Below are positions 4,122 through 62,891 of a stretch of DNA of 64,000 bases, one piece after another. A program made the position numbers and the translations under genes. How positions within the stretch are numbered: position 1 is the stretch's first letter; each line of letters starts with the position of its first letter. The stretch is from the NCBI GenBank assembly GCA_026392455.1, contig JAPLCB010000011.1, positions 355,664 to 419,663 of the forward strand, given 5' to 3'. The notes under the pieces are model-generated. The model ran no database searches. It was not told where the DNA came from and saw nothing but the letters and a program-made list of their open reading frames with translations. This DNA is from Propionibacteriales bacterium. Its GTDB lineage: Bacteria > Actinomycetota > Actinomycetes > Propionibacteriales > Nocardioidaceae.

Positions 4122-4130
4122 TTCGCCAAG

Positions 4131-4321
4131 CCTGAGCTCGCGAAGGCTTGGATGCGAATCAGATTGAGGGCCGAGCGCAGACCCGAACCTGAGAGGGGCT
4201 GCACTCGGTGTCTCGAAATCTGAGCCGGCCTGAGCTCGCGAAGGCGTGGATGCGAACCAGATCGAGGGCCGAGCGCAGACCCGAACCTGAGAGGGGCTGC
4301 ACTCGGTGTCTCGAGATCTGA
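4131..4321. repeat. tandem direct repeat, 2 copies, period 98 bp (copies 4131-4223 and 4229-4321, about 96% identical); each copy contains a long imperfect hairpin
   Basis: CCTGAGCTCGCGAAGGC[T/G]TGGATGCGAA[T/C]CAGAT[T/C]GAGGGCCGAGCGCAGACCCGAACCTGAGAGGGGCTGCACTCGGTGTCTCGA[A/G]ATCTGA read directly twice. The second copy contains the rarD start codon. Confidence 0.9.
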
Positions 4322-10161: not shown

Positions 10162-12516
10162 CTAGCTGGCGCCGACCTTCTTCCAGTAGCGGCTCGCGCC
10201 GAGCAACCGGCCGCCGACCAGCAGCAGACCCATCGCGAAGCCGAGCAGCTGGACCGGGACGCCGCCGGTGTTGGGAAGACCCGAGACCGTGGTGCTCCCC
10301 GTGATGCTTCCGGTCGTGCTCGCTGCCCCGCTGACGGAGCCGGCGGTGTCGCCCGGGGGCAGGACCACCGTGGTCGAGCCGCCGTCGGTGTTCGGGGTGG
10401 TCTGACCCACGGTGTTCCCGTCAGTCTGGCCGACCGTGTTCGATCCGTCCGTTGAGCCGGTGGCGGTGCCGGTCGTGGTGCCGGTCGTGGTGCCGGTCGT
10501 GTTCCCGATCGTGTTGCCGAACGTGTTGCCGAACGTGTTGCCCGTCGTGTTGCCGACCGTCGAACCCGAGGTCGAACCCACGGTCGTGCCCGCTACGTCG
10601 CCGATCGTGGTGCCCACCGTCGTACCGGTCGTGGTGCCGCTGATGTCGCCAACGGTGTTCCCGACCGTGTTCCCGACCGTGTTACCGGTTGTGTTTCCCG
10701 TCGTCGAGCCGGTCGTCGTGCCGGTCGTCGTGCCGGTCGTCGTGCCGGTCGTCGTGCCGGTCGTCGTGCCGGTCGTCGTGCCGGTCGTCGTGCCGGTCGT
10801 CGTCCCGGTCGTCGTGCCGCTGATGTCACCGGTCGTCGTGCCGCTGATGTCACCGACCGTGTTGCCGACCGTGTTACCAACTGTGTTCCCCGACGCGTTT
10901 CCGGTTGTGTTTCCGGTTGTGTTTCCGGTCGTGGTGCCGGTGGTCGTGCCGGTCGTGGTGCCGGTGGTCGTGCCGGTGGTCGTCCCGGTCGTGGTGCCGG
11001 TGATGTCACCGGTCGTGGTGCCGCTGATGTCACCAACGGTGTTCCCGACCGTGTTCCCGGTCGTGTTGCCGGTCGTGTTGCCGGTCGTGTTGCCGGTCGT
11101 GTTGCCGGTCGTGTTGCCGGTCGTGTTGCCGGTCGTGTTGCCGGTCGTGTTGCCGGTCGTGTTGCCGGTCGTCGTGCCGGTCGTCGTGCCGGTCGTCGTG
11201 CCGGTCGTCGTGCCGGTCGTCGTGCCGGTCGTCGTGCCGGTCGTCGTCCCGGTCGTCGTGCCGGACGTCGTCCCGGTCGTGGTGCCCGAGGTGGCACAGT
11301 TCAATCCACCGGCCGGAGCAACCGCGTCGACCTCGCCGCGCATGAAGCCGAGCTCGACCGCACCCAGGCCACTGGGGGCAATGATCGGCAGCGGAAGCAA
11401 CGAGAGGTTGGCGGTCAGGCCGTTGAGCGCACCGTGGGCATGGGTACCGTCAGCGGACTGCTGAATGTCGGTGACTCCTCCGTACGAGATCTCACCGCCC
11501 ACCAGTCCGGCCAAGGTCGTACCAAGACCGCCCGCATCCCTGAGAATCTTGTCGATCTCGATCGACATCCCGGGCTGGATGCTCAGTGACAGCGGCCCGA
11601 CGTTGATGGTCATGTCACCGAGCTCCGGTGCCACCACCTTCGCGCCGGCGGGCAGACCGTTGGCGACGGCTGTCATGACAGCACTGTCGGGCACGCCGCC
11701 ACCAGCGTTGCCACCCCACGAGACATCGAGGAATCCGCCCAGCGCGTGGACGTCCGCGAAGTCCCAGGTCGCCATCGACTGCACAGCCAGACCCTGGGCG
11801 CAGGCACGGGGGTCGGACACCAGCTTGACCTCGCTGGTGTTCTGGCCGACCTGGGCCGAGGCGAGCGGGAACAGGCTGCTGAATCCAGGGATCGCAATCG
11901 GCATGTTCAGGCCGGGCAGGCCGCCGTTGAGAAGTTCGAGCTCAGCAATGCTGGAGTCCGAGTAGGCCAGGCGTCCGCCGGCCGTGAGGACCGTGTTGTT
12001 CCAGTTGGAGTCGGACTTGCCGTCCAGGATCCCGAGCTTGCCGATCGGCGAGAGATCGAGGTTCGCGACCGGGTTGGCGATGGTCTCCAACGACCCGTCG
12101 ACCACGGTCGTCGAGTACGACTCGGTGCGTACCGGCTGGACGTTCAGTCCGATGGCTCCGATGCCGAGGGCAGCCGAGCGAGCGTAGGAGCGGGCGGTCG
12201 GATCGGCGGCGAGCTGGCCGGGAACGGCGATCTCTCCGGTGCTGGTGCCGGTGTAGATCCCCTTGTTGAGACCGGTGCTGTCGGCAACGGCGACCGACTC
12301 GCCGATGTTGGCGCGTGCGTTGACACCGCCGTACAGGAGCTCGGCCCCGACGAAGACGCCGTAGTTCCTGGTCCAACCGCTGAACGACTGGTCGCCTGCG
12401 TTCGCGGCCTGGGCGCCGCCGGCCGGCAGGATGACCAGTCCGGCGGTCGACAGGGACAGTGCGGCCGCGGCCAGCAGCTTCAGCCTGGGCCTGGGCCTGA
12501 GCTCCGGTGACATCAT
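10162..12516 (-). CDS. LPXTG-anchored cell-wall surface protein with a long Thr-Thr-Gly-Thr/Asn tetrapeptide repeat stalk
   Basis: ORF 10162..12579. Start set to ATGATG at 12516 (AAGGAAAC RBS). Signal peptide ...LVILPAGGAQA/AN, a roughly 400-aa N-terminal domain, about 270 aa of TTGT/TTGN/TVGN repeats, then C-terminal LPNTGG + hydrophobic segment + RYWKK sorting signal. Confidence 0.85.
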   Translation of the reverse strand: MMSPELRPRPRLKLLAAAALSLSTAGLVILPAGGAQAANAGDQSFSGWTRNYGVFVGAELLYGGVNARANIGESVAVADSTGLNKGIYTGTSTGEIAVPGQLAADPTARSYARSAALGIGAIGLNVQPVRTESYSTTVVDGSLETIANPVANLDLSPIGKLGILDGKSDSNWNNTVLTAGGRLAYSDSSIAELELLNGGLPGLNMPIAIPGFSSLFPLASAQVGQNTSEVKLVSDPRACAQGLAVQSMATWDFADVHALGGFLDVSWGGNAGGGVPDSAVMTAVANGLPAGAKVVAPELGDMTINVGPLSLSIQPGMSIEIDKILRDAGGLGTTLAGLVGGEISYGGVTDIQQSADGTHAHGALNGLTANLSLLPLPIIAPSGLGAVELGFMRGEVDAVAPAGGLNCATSGTTTGTTSGTTTGTTTGTTTGTTTGTTTGTTTGTTTGTTTGNTTGNTTGNTTGNTTGNTTGNTTGNTTGNTTGNTTGNTVGNTVGDISGTTTGDITGTTTGTTTGTTTGTTTGTTTGTTTGNTTGNTTGNASGNTVGNTVGNTVGDISGTTTGDISGTTTGTTTGTTTGTTTGTTTGTTTGTTTGTTTGTTTGSTTGNTTGNTVGNTVGNTVGDISGTTTGTTVGTTIGDVAGTTVGSTSGSTVGNTTGNTFGNTFGNTIGNTTGTTTGTTTGTATGSTDGSNTVGQTDGNTVGQTTPNTDGGSTTVVLPPGDTAGSVSGAASTTGSITGSTTVSGLPNTGGVPVQLLGFAMGLLLVGGRLLGASRYWKKVGAS
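10465..11290. repeat. 12-nt-period coding tandem repeat region inside the LPXTG gene
   Basis: Perfect runs of (CCGGTCGTCGTG)n at about 10709-10806 and 11165-11246, and (CCGGTCGTGTTG)n at about 11057-11166. They form three higher-order blocks separated by GCTGATGTCACC (GDISG) units. Confidence 0.95.
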
Positions 12517-39988: not shown

Positions 39989-40002
39989 AGGGCGAGGCTA
40001 TC

Positions 40003-40122
40003 CGCCGAGAGGGCGCAGATGTCCCGCCCGATCACGCCGAGAGGGCGCAGATGTCCCATCCCAGTGGGACATCTGCGCCCGGTCGACGTCGCACAGCGGG
40101 ACATCTGCGCCCGGTCGACGTC
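40003..40122. repeat. inverted array of four 23-25-bp repeats, 32-bp period (F1 40003-40025, F2 40035-40057, R1 40066-40090, R2 40098-40122)
   Basis: Core GGGCGCAGATGTCCC twice, then its reverse complement GGGACATCTGCGCCC(GGTCGACGTC) twice. F2/R1 form a perfect 16-bp stem around a 6-nt loop. The same family recurs at 61845-61995. Confidence 0.95.
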
Positions 40123-40867
40123 AGTCGGCCGTCGCGATCGGCGGCGGTGCGTCGAAGTCGAAGGCCCGGAACAGCACCGCGTGCTCGACCCCGGTCGCGC
40201 GACCGCCCTGGGCCGCGATCATCGGGATCATGAAGGCGGGCGGCGGATGACCCTCGATGGCGCCGAGGTACTCGCCGTGCGCCTCCAGGGATGCCACCCC
40301 CTGGGCGAGCGCCTCCCCGGTGACGTCCACCCCGTGCGTCGGCTGGGTGTGCCCGCCGACCAGGAACCAGCGGACCTTGTGCGGCAGCAGACCCTCCTCG
40401 ACGAGCTCGGGGAAGACCCACGGGTTGTCGGCGTCACGGATCGCGTCCAGGGTGGCGATCCCGGCCACCCGGTGGTCGGCCTGGTTCAGGCCGGCGACGA
40501 ACTCGACCTCCCAGGACCCGGTGAGCACCACGTCCGGCCGGTGGGTCCGGATCGCCCGGGCGATGTCGCGGCGCAGCTCAAGGCTCTCCTGGAGCGTCCC
40601 GTCCGGATGGTCGAGCATCTCCAGACTGGTGACCCCGACGGCAGCACAGGCGGCCTCCTGCTCGCCGCGGCGGATCCGCGCGGTCTCCTCGGGCGGCAGC
40701 GGCATCCCGGCCTCGCCGCGGGTCAGCAGCAGGTAGGCGACCTCCACGCCCTGCGCGACCCACTTGGCGACCGCGGCCGAGGTGCCGTACTCGACGTCGT
40801 CGGGGTGCGCCACGACGCACAGAACCTTGCGGAAGCCCTGGTCGGGCAGCAACGGAAGGATGTCCAT
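40121..40867 (-). CDS. PIG-L (LmbE-like) family deacetylase
   Basis: ORF 40121..40867. VLCVVAHPDDVEYG zinc-site motif and HPDG / HRV motifs. Confidence 0.85.
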   Translation of the reverse strand: MDILPLLPDQGFRKVLCVVAHPDDVEYGTSAAVAKWVAQGVEVAYLLLTRGEAGMPLPPEETARIRRGEQEAACAAVGVTSLEMLDHPDGTLQESLELRRDIARAIRTHRPDVVLTGSWEVEFVAGLNQADHRVAGIATLDAIRDADNPWVFPELVEEGLLPHKVRWFLVGGHTQPTHGVDVTGEALAQGVASLEAHGEYLGAIEGHPPPAFMIPMIAAQGGRATGVEHAVLFRAFDFDAPPPIATAD

Positions 40868-46471: not shown

Positions 46472-46509
46472 CGACGACGGGCCCGACCGCACGGTCGGGC
46501 CCGTCGTCG
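46472..46509. terminator. bidirectional hairpin terminator between convergent peroxidase and ccsB genes
   Basis: CGACGACGGGCCCGACC-gcac-GGTCGGGCCCGTCGTCG: perfect 17-bp stem with a 4-nt loop. Confidence 0.7.
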
Positions 46510-59994: not shown

Positions 59995-60237
59995 TCAACG
60001 GGTCAGGGCGGAGCGCAACCGGGCCTCGTCGACCCGCCAGAAATCGTGCTGCGCACCGTCGACGAAGGTCACCGGGATCTGCTCGCCGTACGCCTTCAGG
60101 AGCGCCGGGTCGCTGCTGATGTCGACCTCGTCGTACGCGGTGCCGACCTCGGCGCAGACCCGCTGGACCACCGCACGGGCGTCGTCGCAGAGGTGGCAGC
60201 CCGGTTTGCTGTAGAGCCGAACCCGGGCCGCGGTCAC
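59995..60237 (-). CDS. glutaredoxin-like protein (DUF836 type)
   Basis: In-frame tail of ORF 59995..60633 from GTG 60237: VTAARVRLYSKPGCHLCDDA (CxxC). GTGA overlap with the upstream ligase gene. Confidence 0.85.
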   Translation of the reverse strand: MTAARVRLYSKPGCHLCDDARAVVQRVCAEVGTAYDEVDISSDPALLKAYGEQIPVTFVDGAQHDFWRVDEARLRSALTR

Positions 60238-61811
60238 TCGAGCAGCCCCAGGGCCCGCCGGCGCTCGGTGGCCCGGAGCCGACCCTTCTGGACCTTGCCG
60301 GTGCCGGTGTACGGCAGCGCCGGGACGACGTGGATCACCGTGGGCCGCTTGAAGCCGGCCAACCGGGTCTCGCAGTGCGCCCGGACCTGGGCGACCAGCT
60401 CGTCCTCCTCGATCTCCTGGGCGGGCTTGACGTACGCGACCACGACCTCGCCGGTCATCGGGTCGTCGGCGCCGATCACGGCTACCTCGGCGACCGCGGC
60501 GAGCTCGGCGATGACGTCCTCGACCTCGCTGGGGTAGACGTTGAACCCCGAGACGATCACCAGCTCCTTGAGGCGGTCCACCAGGAAGAGGTCGCCGGCC
60601 TCGGTCAGGTAGCCGACGTCGCCGGTCGGCCACCAGCCCTCGGGATCCGGCCCGTCCGCACCGTCGGGCCAGTAGCCGGAGAAGAGGTTCTCACCCTTGA
60701 TCCAGATCTCGCCGCTGTCGCCGTCCTCGGGGGCAGCGCCGCGTTCGTCGACGAGGCGGACCTGGATCCCGGGCAGCGGCGCCCCGACCGAGCGCGGGTC
60801 GGTGCTCGCGCTGCACTGGGTCGACGTCACGACCGGAGCCGCTTCGGTGAGCCCGTACCCCTGGTGGATCCGCAGACCGGTACGAGCGGTGAAGGCCTCG
60901 GTCAGCTCGGGCGCCAACGGCGCCGAGCCGGACAGGATCGTCCGGACCGGTCCGAGCCGCTCCTCGAGACCGGGCACCTGCATCCAGTAGGCAAAGACCG
61001 GCGGCGCCACCGGCAGCACCGAGATCGCCTCGTCCTCGATGATGTCGAGCGAGCCCTCCGGGTCGAAGCCGTCGACCAGCACCATCCGGGCGTGCTGCCG
61101 CAGTACCTGGCCGAGCACGGCGTTCAGACCGTAGACGTGGAAGAGCGGCAGAACCCCGAGCACGACGTCGCGACCGTTGATCATCGGCGGGACCACCTCG
61201 GCGGCCTGGGCGATGTTCGCGGCGAGGGCACGGTGGCTCAGCATCGCGGCGCGCGGCCTGCCCGACGTGCCGCTGGTGTAGAGCAGGACCGCGAGCGACT
61301 CCGGGTCGGTGGTGCCCGGCACCGGCGCACCGGTCTCCATCACCAGGTGGTCCCAGGACCGTTCGCCGGGTTCCAGGGTGGTCGCGATCGTGACCAGACG
61401 GGGCTTGGGCGTCGAGGTCTCGGCAGCGGCGAGCGCCTCGCCGACCCCGGCCACGGCACTGCGCACGGTACCGATGGTGGTGCTGTCGGCGATCACCATC
61501 CGGGCCCCGGAATCGACCAGCATCCGGACGACCTCGCCGGTGGCGCTGCGCGGGTTGATCGGCACCGCCACCATCCGCGCCCGCAGCACGCCGAGGTAGG
61601 TGGCCACGAACTCGATCCTGTTGGTCGTCGCGATCATGACGCGGTAGCCGGCGACCATGCCGGCCACGGACAGGCCGTGGGCCACCCGGTCCGCGAGATC
61701 GTCCAGCCCTGCCCAGGTAACGGTCCGGCCCGTTGCTGCCTCGGAAAGCGCGATCTTCGTCGGCTCAGCGCGAGTGGCGGCGGACAGGAGATCGGCGACG
61801 ATGGTCTCCAT
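60234..61811 (-). CDS. AMP-dependent acyl-CoA synthetase (long-chain fatty-acid-CoA ligase-like)
   Basis: In-frame part of ORF 60234..63401 from ATG 61811: METIVADLL...LLYTSGTSGRPRAAMLSH...GYGLTEA...TGDVGY...VDRLKELVIVSGFNVYP...GKVQKG. Confidence 0.9.
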   Translation of the reverse strand: METIVADLLSAATRAEPTKIALSEAATGRTVTWAGLDDLADRVAHGLSVAGMVAGYRVMIATTNRIEFVATYLGVLRARMVAVPINPRSATGEVVRMLVDSGARMVIADSTTIGTVRSAVAGVGEALAAAETSTPKPRLVTIATTLEPGERSWDHLVMETGAPVPGTTDPESLAVLLYTSGTSGRPRAAMLSHRALAANIAQAAEVVPPMINGRDVVLGVLPLFHVYGLNAVLGQVLRQHARMVLVDGFDPEGSLDIIEDEAISVLPVAPPVFAYWMQVPGLEERLGPVRTILSGSAPLAPELTEAFTARTGLRIHQGYGLTEAAPVVTSTQCSASTDPRSVGAPLPGIQVRLVDERGAAPEDGDSGEIWIKGENLFSGYWPDGADGPDPEGWWPTGDVGYLTEAGDLFLVDRLKELVIVSGFNVYPSEVEDVIAELAAVAEVAVIGADDPMTGEVVVAYVKPAQEIEEDELVAQVRAHCETRLAGFKRPTVIHVVPALPYTGTGKVQKGRLRATERRRALGLLE

Positions 61812-61844
61812 CCGGGGAGTCTGACATAAGTGCGCCGCTGCGTG

Positions 61845-61995
61845 CGTCGAGCGGGCGCAGATGTCTCGCACGAGCGCGCCGAGCGGGCGCAGATGTCCCA
61901 GCGCCCTGGGACATCTGCGCCCGGTCGACGTTCGGACGCGGGACATCTGCGCCCGGTCGACGTTCTGGAGCGGGACAGCCGCGCCCGGTCGACGA
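61845..61995. repeat. second copy of the 32-bp-period inverted repeat array (F1 61845-61867, F2 61877-61899, R1 61908-61932, R2 61940-61964, degenerate R3 61972-61995)
   Basis: Same GGGCGCAGATGTC[T/C]C core and its complement GGGACATCTGCGCCCGGTCGACGTT as at 40003-40122. Lies in the divergent region between the acyl-CoA ligase and HAD genes. Confidence 0.95.
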
Positions 61996-62012
61996 GCGCC
62001 TAGGCTGAGGGG

Positions 62013-62891
62013 GTGGCAGCCAAACGTGCGACCCCCGTGAACCTCAAGCGGCGCTCCCGCCTGGCCGGTGAGGCCGCCGCCGCCATCGCCGAGGTCGAGA
62101 ACAGCCTGTCGGTGGACCCCGACGAGACCGGCGCGGCCTTCTTCGACGTCGACAACACCGTGATGCAGGGCGCCTCCATCTTCCACCTCGCCAAGGGGCT
62201 GCACCGGCGCAAGTTCTTCACCACCCGCGACATCGCCGGGGCCGCCTGGAAGCAGGCCTACTTCCGGATCGTCGGTGTCGAGGATCCCGAGCACGTGGCC
62301 GAGGCGCGATCCGCGGCGCTGGCGTTCATCGCTGGGCACACCACGACCGAGCTCGAGCAGCTCGGCGAGGAGATCTTCGACGAGGCGATGGCGCACCGGA
62401 TCTGGCCGGGGACCCGGGCGCTCGCCCAGCTGCACCTGGACCAGGGGCAACGGGTCTGGCTGGTCACTGCTGCCCCGATCGAGATCGCCAGCATCATCGC
62501 CCGGCGCCTCGGGCTCACCGGCGCGATGGGCACCGTGGCCGAGCACATCAACGGTGTCTACACCGGCCGGCTGGTCGGCGAGATGCTGCACGGTCCCGCC
62601 AAGGGCGAGGCGATCCTGGCCCTGGCCGCACGCGAGGGCCTGGACCTGTCCCAGTGCTCGGCCTACTCGGACTCGTACAACGACGTGACCATGCTGTCGC
62701 TGGTCGGCGACCCGTGTGCGATCAACCCGGACGCCAAGCTGCGCGCGCACGCCCGCGCCCAGGGCTGGAGGATCCGCGACTACCGGACCGGGCGCAAGGC
62801 GGCCCGCCTGGGCGTGTTCACGGCTGCGGTGGCCGGTGCCGCGGTCGGCAGCGTCGCAGCCGGTACGGCGATCCGTCGCCGGCTGACCTGA
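62013..62891 (+). CDS. HAD-IB family hydrolase (SerB-like phosphatase)
   Basis: ORF 62013..62891. FFDVDNTV motif I, VTAAP motif II, AYSDSYNDVTML motif IV, and a C-terminal hydrophobic tail. Confidence 0.85.
   Translation: MAAKRATPVNLKRRSRLAGEAAAAIAEVENSLSVDPDETGAAFFDVDNTVMQGASIFHLAKGLHRRKFFTTRDIAGAAWKQAYFRIVGVEDPEHVAEARSAALAFIAGHTTTELEQLGEEIFDEAMAHRIWPGTRALAQLHLDQGQRVWLVTAAPIEIASIIARRLGLTGAMGTVAEHINGVYTGRLVGEMLHGPAKGEAILALAAREGLDLSQCSAYSDSYNDVTMLSLVGDPCAINPDAKLRAHARAQGWRIRDYRTGRKAARLGVFTAAVAGAAVGSVAAGTAIRRRLT

Follow-up and report, generated by a model that had tools for sequence, protein, structure and literature searches.

The 64,000-nt stretch of DNA analysed in this study (hereafter the window) carries, between two divergently transcribed genes, a compact array of short repeats in opposite orientations, and the question raised by this locus is whether the array belongs to the two promoters, acts at the RNA level, or is an inserted repeat element that has been tolerated. 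The window derives from a Propionibacteriales metagenome-assembled genome (MAG) and represents core chromosome of 66-74% GC with nuo, menaquinone (men), ccs/ResB and hem genes. On one side of the array lies an AMP-binding acyl-CoA ligase gene on the minus strand (60234-61811, ATG at 61811), and on the other a HAD-IB hydrolase gene on the plus strand (62013-62891, GTG at 62013). Pfam supported both genes, and the 201-nt gap between the two start codons agreed with the first-pass annotation of this DNA. The HAD protein was 100% identical to MCX6398266.1 of a Propionibacteriales MAG, and its best relatives were found in Nocardioides marmoriginsengisoli and several Marmoricola genomes. Among the approximately 35 window ORFs scanned, no transposase, integrase or other mobile-element gene was detected, nor any RAYT-like gene or other mobilising function. 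Elsewhere in the window, a 12-nt tandem repeat, GCCGGTCGTGGT, occurred in about 69 copies at 10456-11286, within a high-GC3 ORF (10406-11464, plus strand) whose translation is low in complexity, (PVVV)n-like and without a counterpart in Pfam; in addition, a 98-nt direct duplication (95% identical) at 4130-4321 was located upstream of and overlapping the start of an EamA-family transporter ORF, with no Rfam or tRNA match.

The array occupies 61845-61994, a 150-base block in which a 23-nt unit occurs five times, twice in forward and three times in reverse orientation, with a start-to-start distance of exactly 32 nt in each arm; the counts, the degenerate third reverse unit and the exact phase were all as first annotated. 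Over 20 units the consensus was GGGACATCTGCGCCCGCTCGGCG, with 15 invariant positions, and the unit profile in the 32-nt phase was GGGACATCTGNGCCCKSTCGRCG. On the plus strand, the forward copies at 61845 and 61877 read CG[T/C]CGAGCGGGCGCAGATGTC[T/C]C. Specifically, the outer left arm is formed by F1 (61845-61867, minus strand; plus-strand letters CGTCGAGCGGGCGCAGATGTCTC, one core mismatch) and the inner left arm by F2 (61877-61899, minus strand; CGCCGAGCGGGCGCAGATGTCCC), followed by a central loop of 8 nt (61900-61907; AGCGCCCT), the loop length also found in the other two small arrays. On the right, all on the plus strand, R1 (61908-61930) and R2 (61940-61962) share the sequence GGGACATCTGCGCCCGGTCGACG, and the degenerate R3 (61972-61994; GGGACAGCCGCGCCCGGTCGACG) has two core mismatches and lacks a left-arm partner. 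The outer-arm sequences had been partly misassigned in the first-pass annotation: the forward outer arms of this array are CGTCGAGCG and CGCCGAGCG, and the variant CGCCGAGAG belongs to the first copy in the window, at 40003-40057.

The array was confirmed to be real rather than a product of chance. Allowing up to three mismatches, the 15-mer core matched 14 times in the window, compared with 6.6 +/- 2.3 times in shuffled sequences, and none of 100 shuffles reached 14; all eight exact copies of the core fell inside the two arrays of the window. As RNA, 61845-61994 folded into one interrupted compound hairpin of -132 kcal/mol, compared with -85 +/- 4 kcal/mol after shuffling (z -11.4), and the DNA fold reached -79 kcal/mol (z -10.0). 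The 23-nt unit alone has an internal stem limited to GGG/CCC, and pairing takes place only between F and R units. The arms of the arrays measure 57-60 nt and are 80-82% complementary, in arrays of 86-340 nt overall; outer-arm pairing in the window arrays is poor, at 5 of 8 positions, and spacers on opposite arms are complementary at just 3 of 9 positions. There was no credible ORF inside the arrays. Searches of the whole window against Rfam (gathering threshold) and for tRNA genes were negative, and promoter and terminator consensus scans returned no sites, a U-tract being absent. An nhmmer profile search covering the window together with about 210 kb from relatives detected no solo or degenerate units outside arrays.

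A sister array of two forward and two reverse units lies at 40003-40120 (F at 40003-40025 and 40035-40057, loop at 40058-40065, R at 40066-40088 and 40098-40120), and its hairpin was comparably pronounced, with a z score of -10.7. It is bounded by the PIG-L stop codon (40121-40123) and by a TAGCCT hexamer (39995-40000, minus strand) located 6 nt before the GTG (39988) of a Na+/H+ exchanger gene. The three orthologous gaps available for comparison measured 30, 39 and 64 nt, compared with 132 nt in the window; none contained a unit, and all three retained the hexamer as TAGGAT or TATCAT. The matching gap in Marmoricola sp. OAE513 (L136 10739-10802) contained CGTCGAGC..GCCGAGA.CGTCCC, which may be a decayed unit remnant or a chance similarity.

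In total, four arrays were recognised in three genomes, within stretches of 64, 8 and 21 kb, respectively, and the period was exactly 32 nt, about three helical turns, in all of them. In a Marmoricola MAG (L019), one forward and two reverse units take up the 90 nt that separate an acyl-CoA dehydrogenase gene from a convergent acetyl-CoA hydrolase/transferase gene. The largest array, 340 nt with approximately five forward and five reverse units in the 32-nt phase, was found in the isolate Marmoricola sp. OAE513 (L136 3016-3358, JBEPOC010000001.1), where it takes up the whole interval between the stop codons of ccsA and a glutathione peroxidase gene; its unit variant was GGGCTCAGATGTCCC, and the locus recurred in an independent sequencing run (L137). 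At the matching site of the window, between convergent glutathione peroxidase and ccsA genes, there was only a hairpin (46472-46507) with a perfect 16-bp stem, GACGACGGGCCCGACC-gcac-GGTCGGGCCCGTCGTC. The contexts of the four arrays were convergent, convergent, tandem and divergent, with no common function among neighbouring genes, and in three of the four a stop codon directly adjoins the last R unit, the terminal CG running directly into TCA (window 40121, L019 3432 and L136 3359).

Searches beyond these genomes added no further arrays of this kind. About 165 kb from other relatives contained no units. When a genome collection was scanned with the bare 15-mer core, at least 116 loci were obtained, mostly chance single matches, and L019 was the only true array among the matches listed. 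A strict hairpin-centre pattern had no match in metagenomes; a loose 11-mer inverted-repeat pattern had 13, all of them unrelated simple hairpins from organisms of 47-75% GC. Viral contigs, PLSDB plasmids and phage genomes gave no match to the array, and the literature searched described no such repeat family for Actinobacteria or Nocardioides. Judged from these searches, the family appears to be new and has so far been seen only in a few Nocardioidaceae genomes (Marmoricola/Nocardioides-like). Separately, an Actinomycetota MAG (L085 3582-3896, CAVXXI010000003.1) showed two adjacent tandem arrays upstream of radA-disA, the former with three 22-25-nt repeats, CCTCGAGTGGGCGCA[T/G]ATGTC, whose core is common with the 23-nt unit, and the latter with five or six 22-nt repeats, TCTGGCCTCTCGACCGGAACTT. 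These may represent a distantly related repeat family; their interpretation as plasmid iterons was rejected, given their location upstream of chromosomal radA-disA.

The pattern of variation differed sharply along the repeat. Among the units of the window and L019, identity was 97% in the core, 81% in the 8-nt tail and about 30%, the chance level, in the spacers, which were nevertheless always 9 nt long. Units were about 85-100% alike overall, with 91-92% within a genome compared with 84.5% between the window and OAE513. In OAE513, neighbouring spacers were near-identical (GCCCAGGAY) or alternated with a 64-nt period, direct evidence that the array grew via local tandem duplication in steps of 32 and 64 nt. 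Taken together, these comparisons point to a repeat family in concerted evolution or under sequence-specific constraint, and do not fit drifting junk. Selection on the core, as previously proposed, was thus borne out as a pattern of conservation; it does not serve as proof of an operator, since concerted evolution, or a mobilising protein that recognises the repeat, would account for it equally well.

Evidence on the origin of the array at 61845-61994 came from comparison of orthologous intergenic regions, which had been put forward as a way to recognise an insertion. We compared the ligase/HAD region in seven related genomes or metagenome contigs whose HAD genes had 82-88% nucleotide identity to that of the window, and none of these seven regions in related species contained the array. 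The ligase/HAD gap measured 60 nt in L118, 74 nt in L119, 195 nt of unrelated sequence in L120, 454 nt including an extra ORF in L121, about 75-100 nt in L139/L140 and 116 nt in L141, and in L117 it held two extra genes; not a single unit was present in any of them. In the last case (Nocardioides marmoriginsengisoli, L117 5764-9991), the gap has gained genes for a 1031-aa Big_3_5 protein and a TetR regulator, which makes this intergenic region an insertion hotspot in the clade. Considering the sister locus as well, the array was missing from the orthologous sites of 10 relatives, all of which are other species, with 82-88% nucleotide identity in the flanking genes and with intergenic DNA that cannot be aligned with the window; no exact empty site or target-site duplication emerged from these comparisons. 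From these comparisons, the array is apparently a lineage-specific insertion and not a conserved part of the promoters, even though its absence in other species would also fit repeated loss, a less parsimonious course.

The sequences immediately outside the array suggested how the flanking genes could continue to be expressed. A -10-like hexamer, CAGACT (61818-61823, minus strand), is located 6 nt upstream of the ligase ATG, and another, TAGGCT (62001-62006, plus strand), 6 nt upstream of the HAD GTG. Ligase orthologues carried nAnACT at the equivalent place, 6-7 nt before the ATG, and HAD orthologues carried TAGGCT, TAGGGT, TACTGT or TAGGAT 6-7 nt before the start. In the relatives, the two -10-like elements are about 35-50 nt apart, compared with 177 nt in the window, where the array lies between them, and at all three promoter-proximal array ends the hexamers were conserved and outside the arrays. 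Actinobacteria have many leaderless genes, and their -35 boxes show little conservation. Since six bases between hexamer and start codon leave no room for a Shine-Dalgarno sequence, the hexamers were read as the -10 elements of leaderless genes, which suggests that the Na+/H+ exchanger, acyl-CoA ligase and HAD hydrolase genes may be leaderless across the clade. The array would accordingly have displaced only upstream/-35 DNA, because the hexamers are outside it, and left the core elements untouched. The proposal that any promoter for either gene must overlap the array therefore needs to be divided: it fails for the -10-like hexamers and holds for the -35/upstream regions of both promoters, which the array occupies and has replaced. 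Promoter occlusion is weakened for the same reason, the conserved hexamers being outside the array.

We consider that the array is probably an insertion of an interspersed foldback repeat family, REP/BIME-, REPIN- or MITE-like, which is tolerated at this site. Of the three roles originally suggested, operator, promoter occlusion and tolerated MITE, the results favour the last one, given the absence of units from all seven ligase/HAD and all three sister orthologous sites and the occurrence of arrays at unrelated loci elsewhere. The building block of the family is a unit of 23-26 nt plus 6-9 variable bases, giving the 32-nt period; a run of direct units leads into a run of inverted ones, so that the whole array is a foldback element able to form one long interrupted hairpin or cruciform. 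Arrays would reach new intergenic sites through transposition or recombination, and could then expand or contract locally in steps of 32 or 64 nt by slipped-strand or unequal recombination. The copy at 61845-61994 would have landed between two back-to-back leaderless promoters, and it is probably tolerated because the -10 elements, likely the sole strongly required promoter elements in this high-GC host, are intact on both sides; since the array would not be transcribed as part of either flanking gene, it would terminate neither. Any effects on expression might be a by-product, through new upstream/-35 DNA, promoters 140 nt further apart, and possible cruciform extrusion in what would be a negatively supercoiled zone between divergent promoters. 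The anatomy, the lack of units at orthologous sites, the spread over several loci and genomes, the contrast between units and spacers and the tandem duplication in OAE513 were observed directly, and from them we infer mobility of the arrays, leaderless promoters and tolerance.

The strict 32-nt phase and the fixed-length, near-random spacers would fit phased protein binding as well as they fit a selfish repeat. It is tentatively possible that the 26-nt unit is recognised by a protein of its own, for instance a transposase/recombinase, whether domesticated or still active, or a nucleoid-associated factor, which would bind cooperatively to three-turn-phased, opposed blocks; the family would then be an actinobacterial counterpart of the REP-RAYT system with a new foldback architecture, its units being added one at a time at a measured 32 nt and its arrays serving as insulators at gene boundaries and divergent promoters. 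Similar properties could be taken to indicate an operator or iteron, in which the units would be phased predicted binding sites and the array a selected module co-regulating or insulating the ligase and HAD promoters: conservation of the 23-26-nt unit contrasts with spacers near random in sequence and fixed in length, a period of about three turns places the sites on one helix face, and at both promoters the -35/upstream zone is taken up by the array. However, we regard such a module as quite improbable, because the conserved position in related genomes that an operator or iteron should have was not observed at any orthologous promoter region examined, other arrays are between convergent genes or past stop codons where there is no operator target, the flanking genes have no functional theme, and the unit is not a dyad and varies from one to five copies per arm. 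It has also been considered that each unit might be an outward promoter of the ECF-sigma type (GGGAC-N16-CGTY), multiplying the promoters of both genes. The reverse units do face HAD and the forward units the ligase, and an ECF sigma factor gene is found just downstream of HAD. ECF -35 boxes carry an AAC signature. The unit does not have this signature, most units in the other three arrays point into gene 3' ends, and conserved -10-like elements are already present outside the array; this very unlikely proposal was rejected.

A role at the RNA level has more to recommend it at other copies than at this one. In such a role, the arrays would be hairpin terminators, 3'-end stabilisers or insulators, and the present copy would block read-in or antisense transcription between the divergent genes. 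In favour of it are the high stability of the hairpins, the stop codon that adjoins the last unit in three of four arrays, the two gaps between convergent genes that arrays fill, and the ordinary terminator-like hairpin of 16 bp that the window carries where OAE513 has its array; for copies at gene ends, a terminator or insulator role is plausible. No gene end, however, adjoins 61845-61994. As the initial reading of the locus had rightly recognised, the array cannot be a simple terminator here, both flanking genes being transcribed away from it, and the hallmark of an intrinsic terminator, a GC-rich hairpin with a U-tract downstream of a gene, was not seen at this position; the consensus scan likewise gave no terminator, even if actinobacterial terminators lacking a U-tract are possible at other copies. 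Furthermore, a simple hairpin would do for such a function, leaving unexplained why there are multiple phased units and why the unit sequence, and not the pairing, is conserved, and the outer arms of the window arrays pair at only 5 of 8 positions. On this evidence an RNA-level role as the selected function of the family, with the present copy acting as a block between the two genes, is unlikely. The source being a MAG, chance similarity or an assembly artefact was considered too, and was judged hardly credible against eight exact 15-mers in fixed phase at two loci and an equivalent architecture in an independent MAG, a cultured isolate genome and the independent run L137.

The arrays are tractable material for studying the spread of such repeats and the possible measuring of their spacing by a protein, given their strictly phased foldback structure, a similarity of units across species close to that of coding DNA, and their presence in the cultured isolate OAE513. 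To our knowledge, work on REP/REPIN/BIME-type repeats and the transposases that go with them has centred almost exclusively on Proteobacteria, and few equivalents have been described in high-GC Actinobacteria. For annotation, the lesson is that the array should not be taken as the operator of the ligase and HAD genes; in addition, the locus suggests that an insertion of 150 nt of hairpin-forming DNA can be tolerated between the -10 elements of back-to-back leaderless promoters.

Among known systems, CRISPR was rejected: CRISPR arrays consist of direct repeats of 23-47 nt with spacers of 21-72 nt, whereas the spacers here are 9 nt and the units lie in inverted blocks. Plasmid iterons and the ends of Mu and Tn7, with their several phased sites for transposase, contain direct repeats of about 20-26 nt in helical phase, in oppositely oriented blocks. 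The present arrays resemble them in having phased units of this size in opposed blocks, but are chromosomal and dispersed, with no rep or transposase gene nearby and nothing between the ends. MITEs, including Correia/NEMIS and minisatellite-containing MITEs, are closer in several respects, for the arrays are small (86-340 nt) and non-coding, have terminal inverted repeats, and occupy intergenic positions by promoters and gene ends; unlike MITEs, they are nearly all terminal repeat with essentially no internal sequence, and neither a target-site duplication nor a parent IS was identified. In eukaryotes, foldback (FB) transposons have inverted arms made of tandem sub-repeats in variable number, and some consist of arms only. 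Inverted arms of tandem sub-repeats with variable count are likewise the architecture of our arrays, an analogy in architecture only, given the different domain of life and size scale.

Each REP unit is an imperfect palindrome of 20-40 nt that forms a stem-loop, and CGTC families have an 8-9-bp stem (Di Nocera et al., 2013, PMC3733652); Actinobacteria are unmentioned in that survey of GTAG- and CGTC-tagged REPs (PMC3733652). Our arrays share with REP and BIME elements the short, GC-rich, intergenic and clustered units, inverted partners that form one large stem-loop, a frequent position just past coding regions and between convergent genes, and a cluster size that varies by tandem reiteration. 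In contrast, REPs are self-palindromic and the 23-nt unit is not self-complementary, and BIME units alternate in orientation while all four arrays here run from forward units to reverse units with a strict 32-nt period. The outer ends of the units are CGTC in F1 and in five R units of the window and CGCC in the remainder, and lie in a paired arm, compared with the unpaired GTAG/CGTC tag of REPs. Membership in the CGTC-REPs was rejected because the unit is not self-palindromic, and the arrays, which do not have the structure that defines a REP, are not members of a known family. REPINs are REP doublets that form hairpins and are mobilised by RAYT transposases; we know of no RAYT for these hosts. 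The minimal module of our arrays, a forward unit, an 8-nt loop and a reverse unit totalling 54 nt, is likewise a hairpin-forming inverted doublet, and the units are, as in REPINs, more alike within than between genomes, with the difference that the arrays here are built of multiple nested doublets in a fixed phase.
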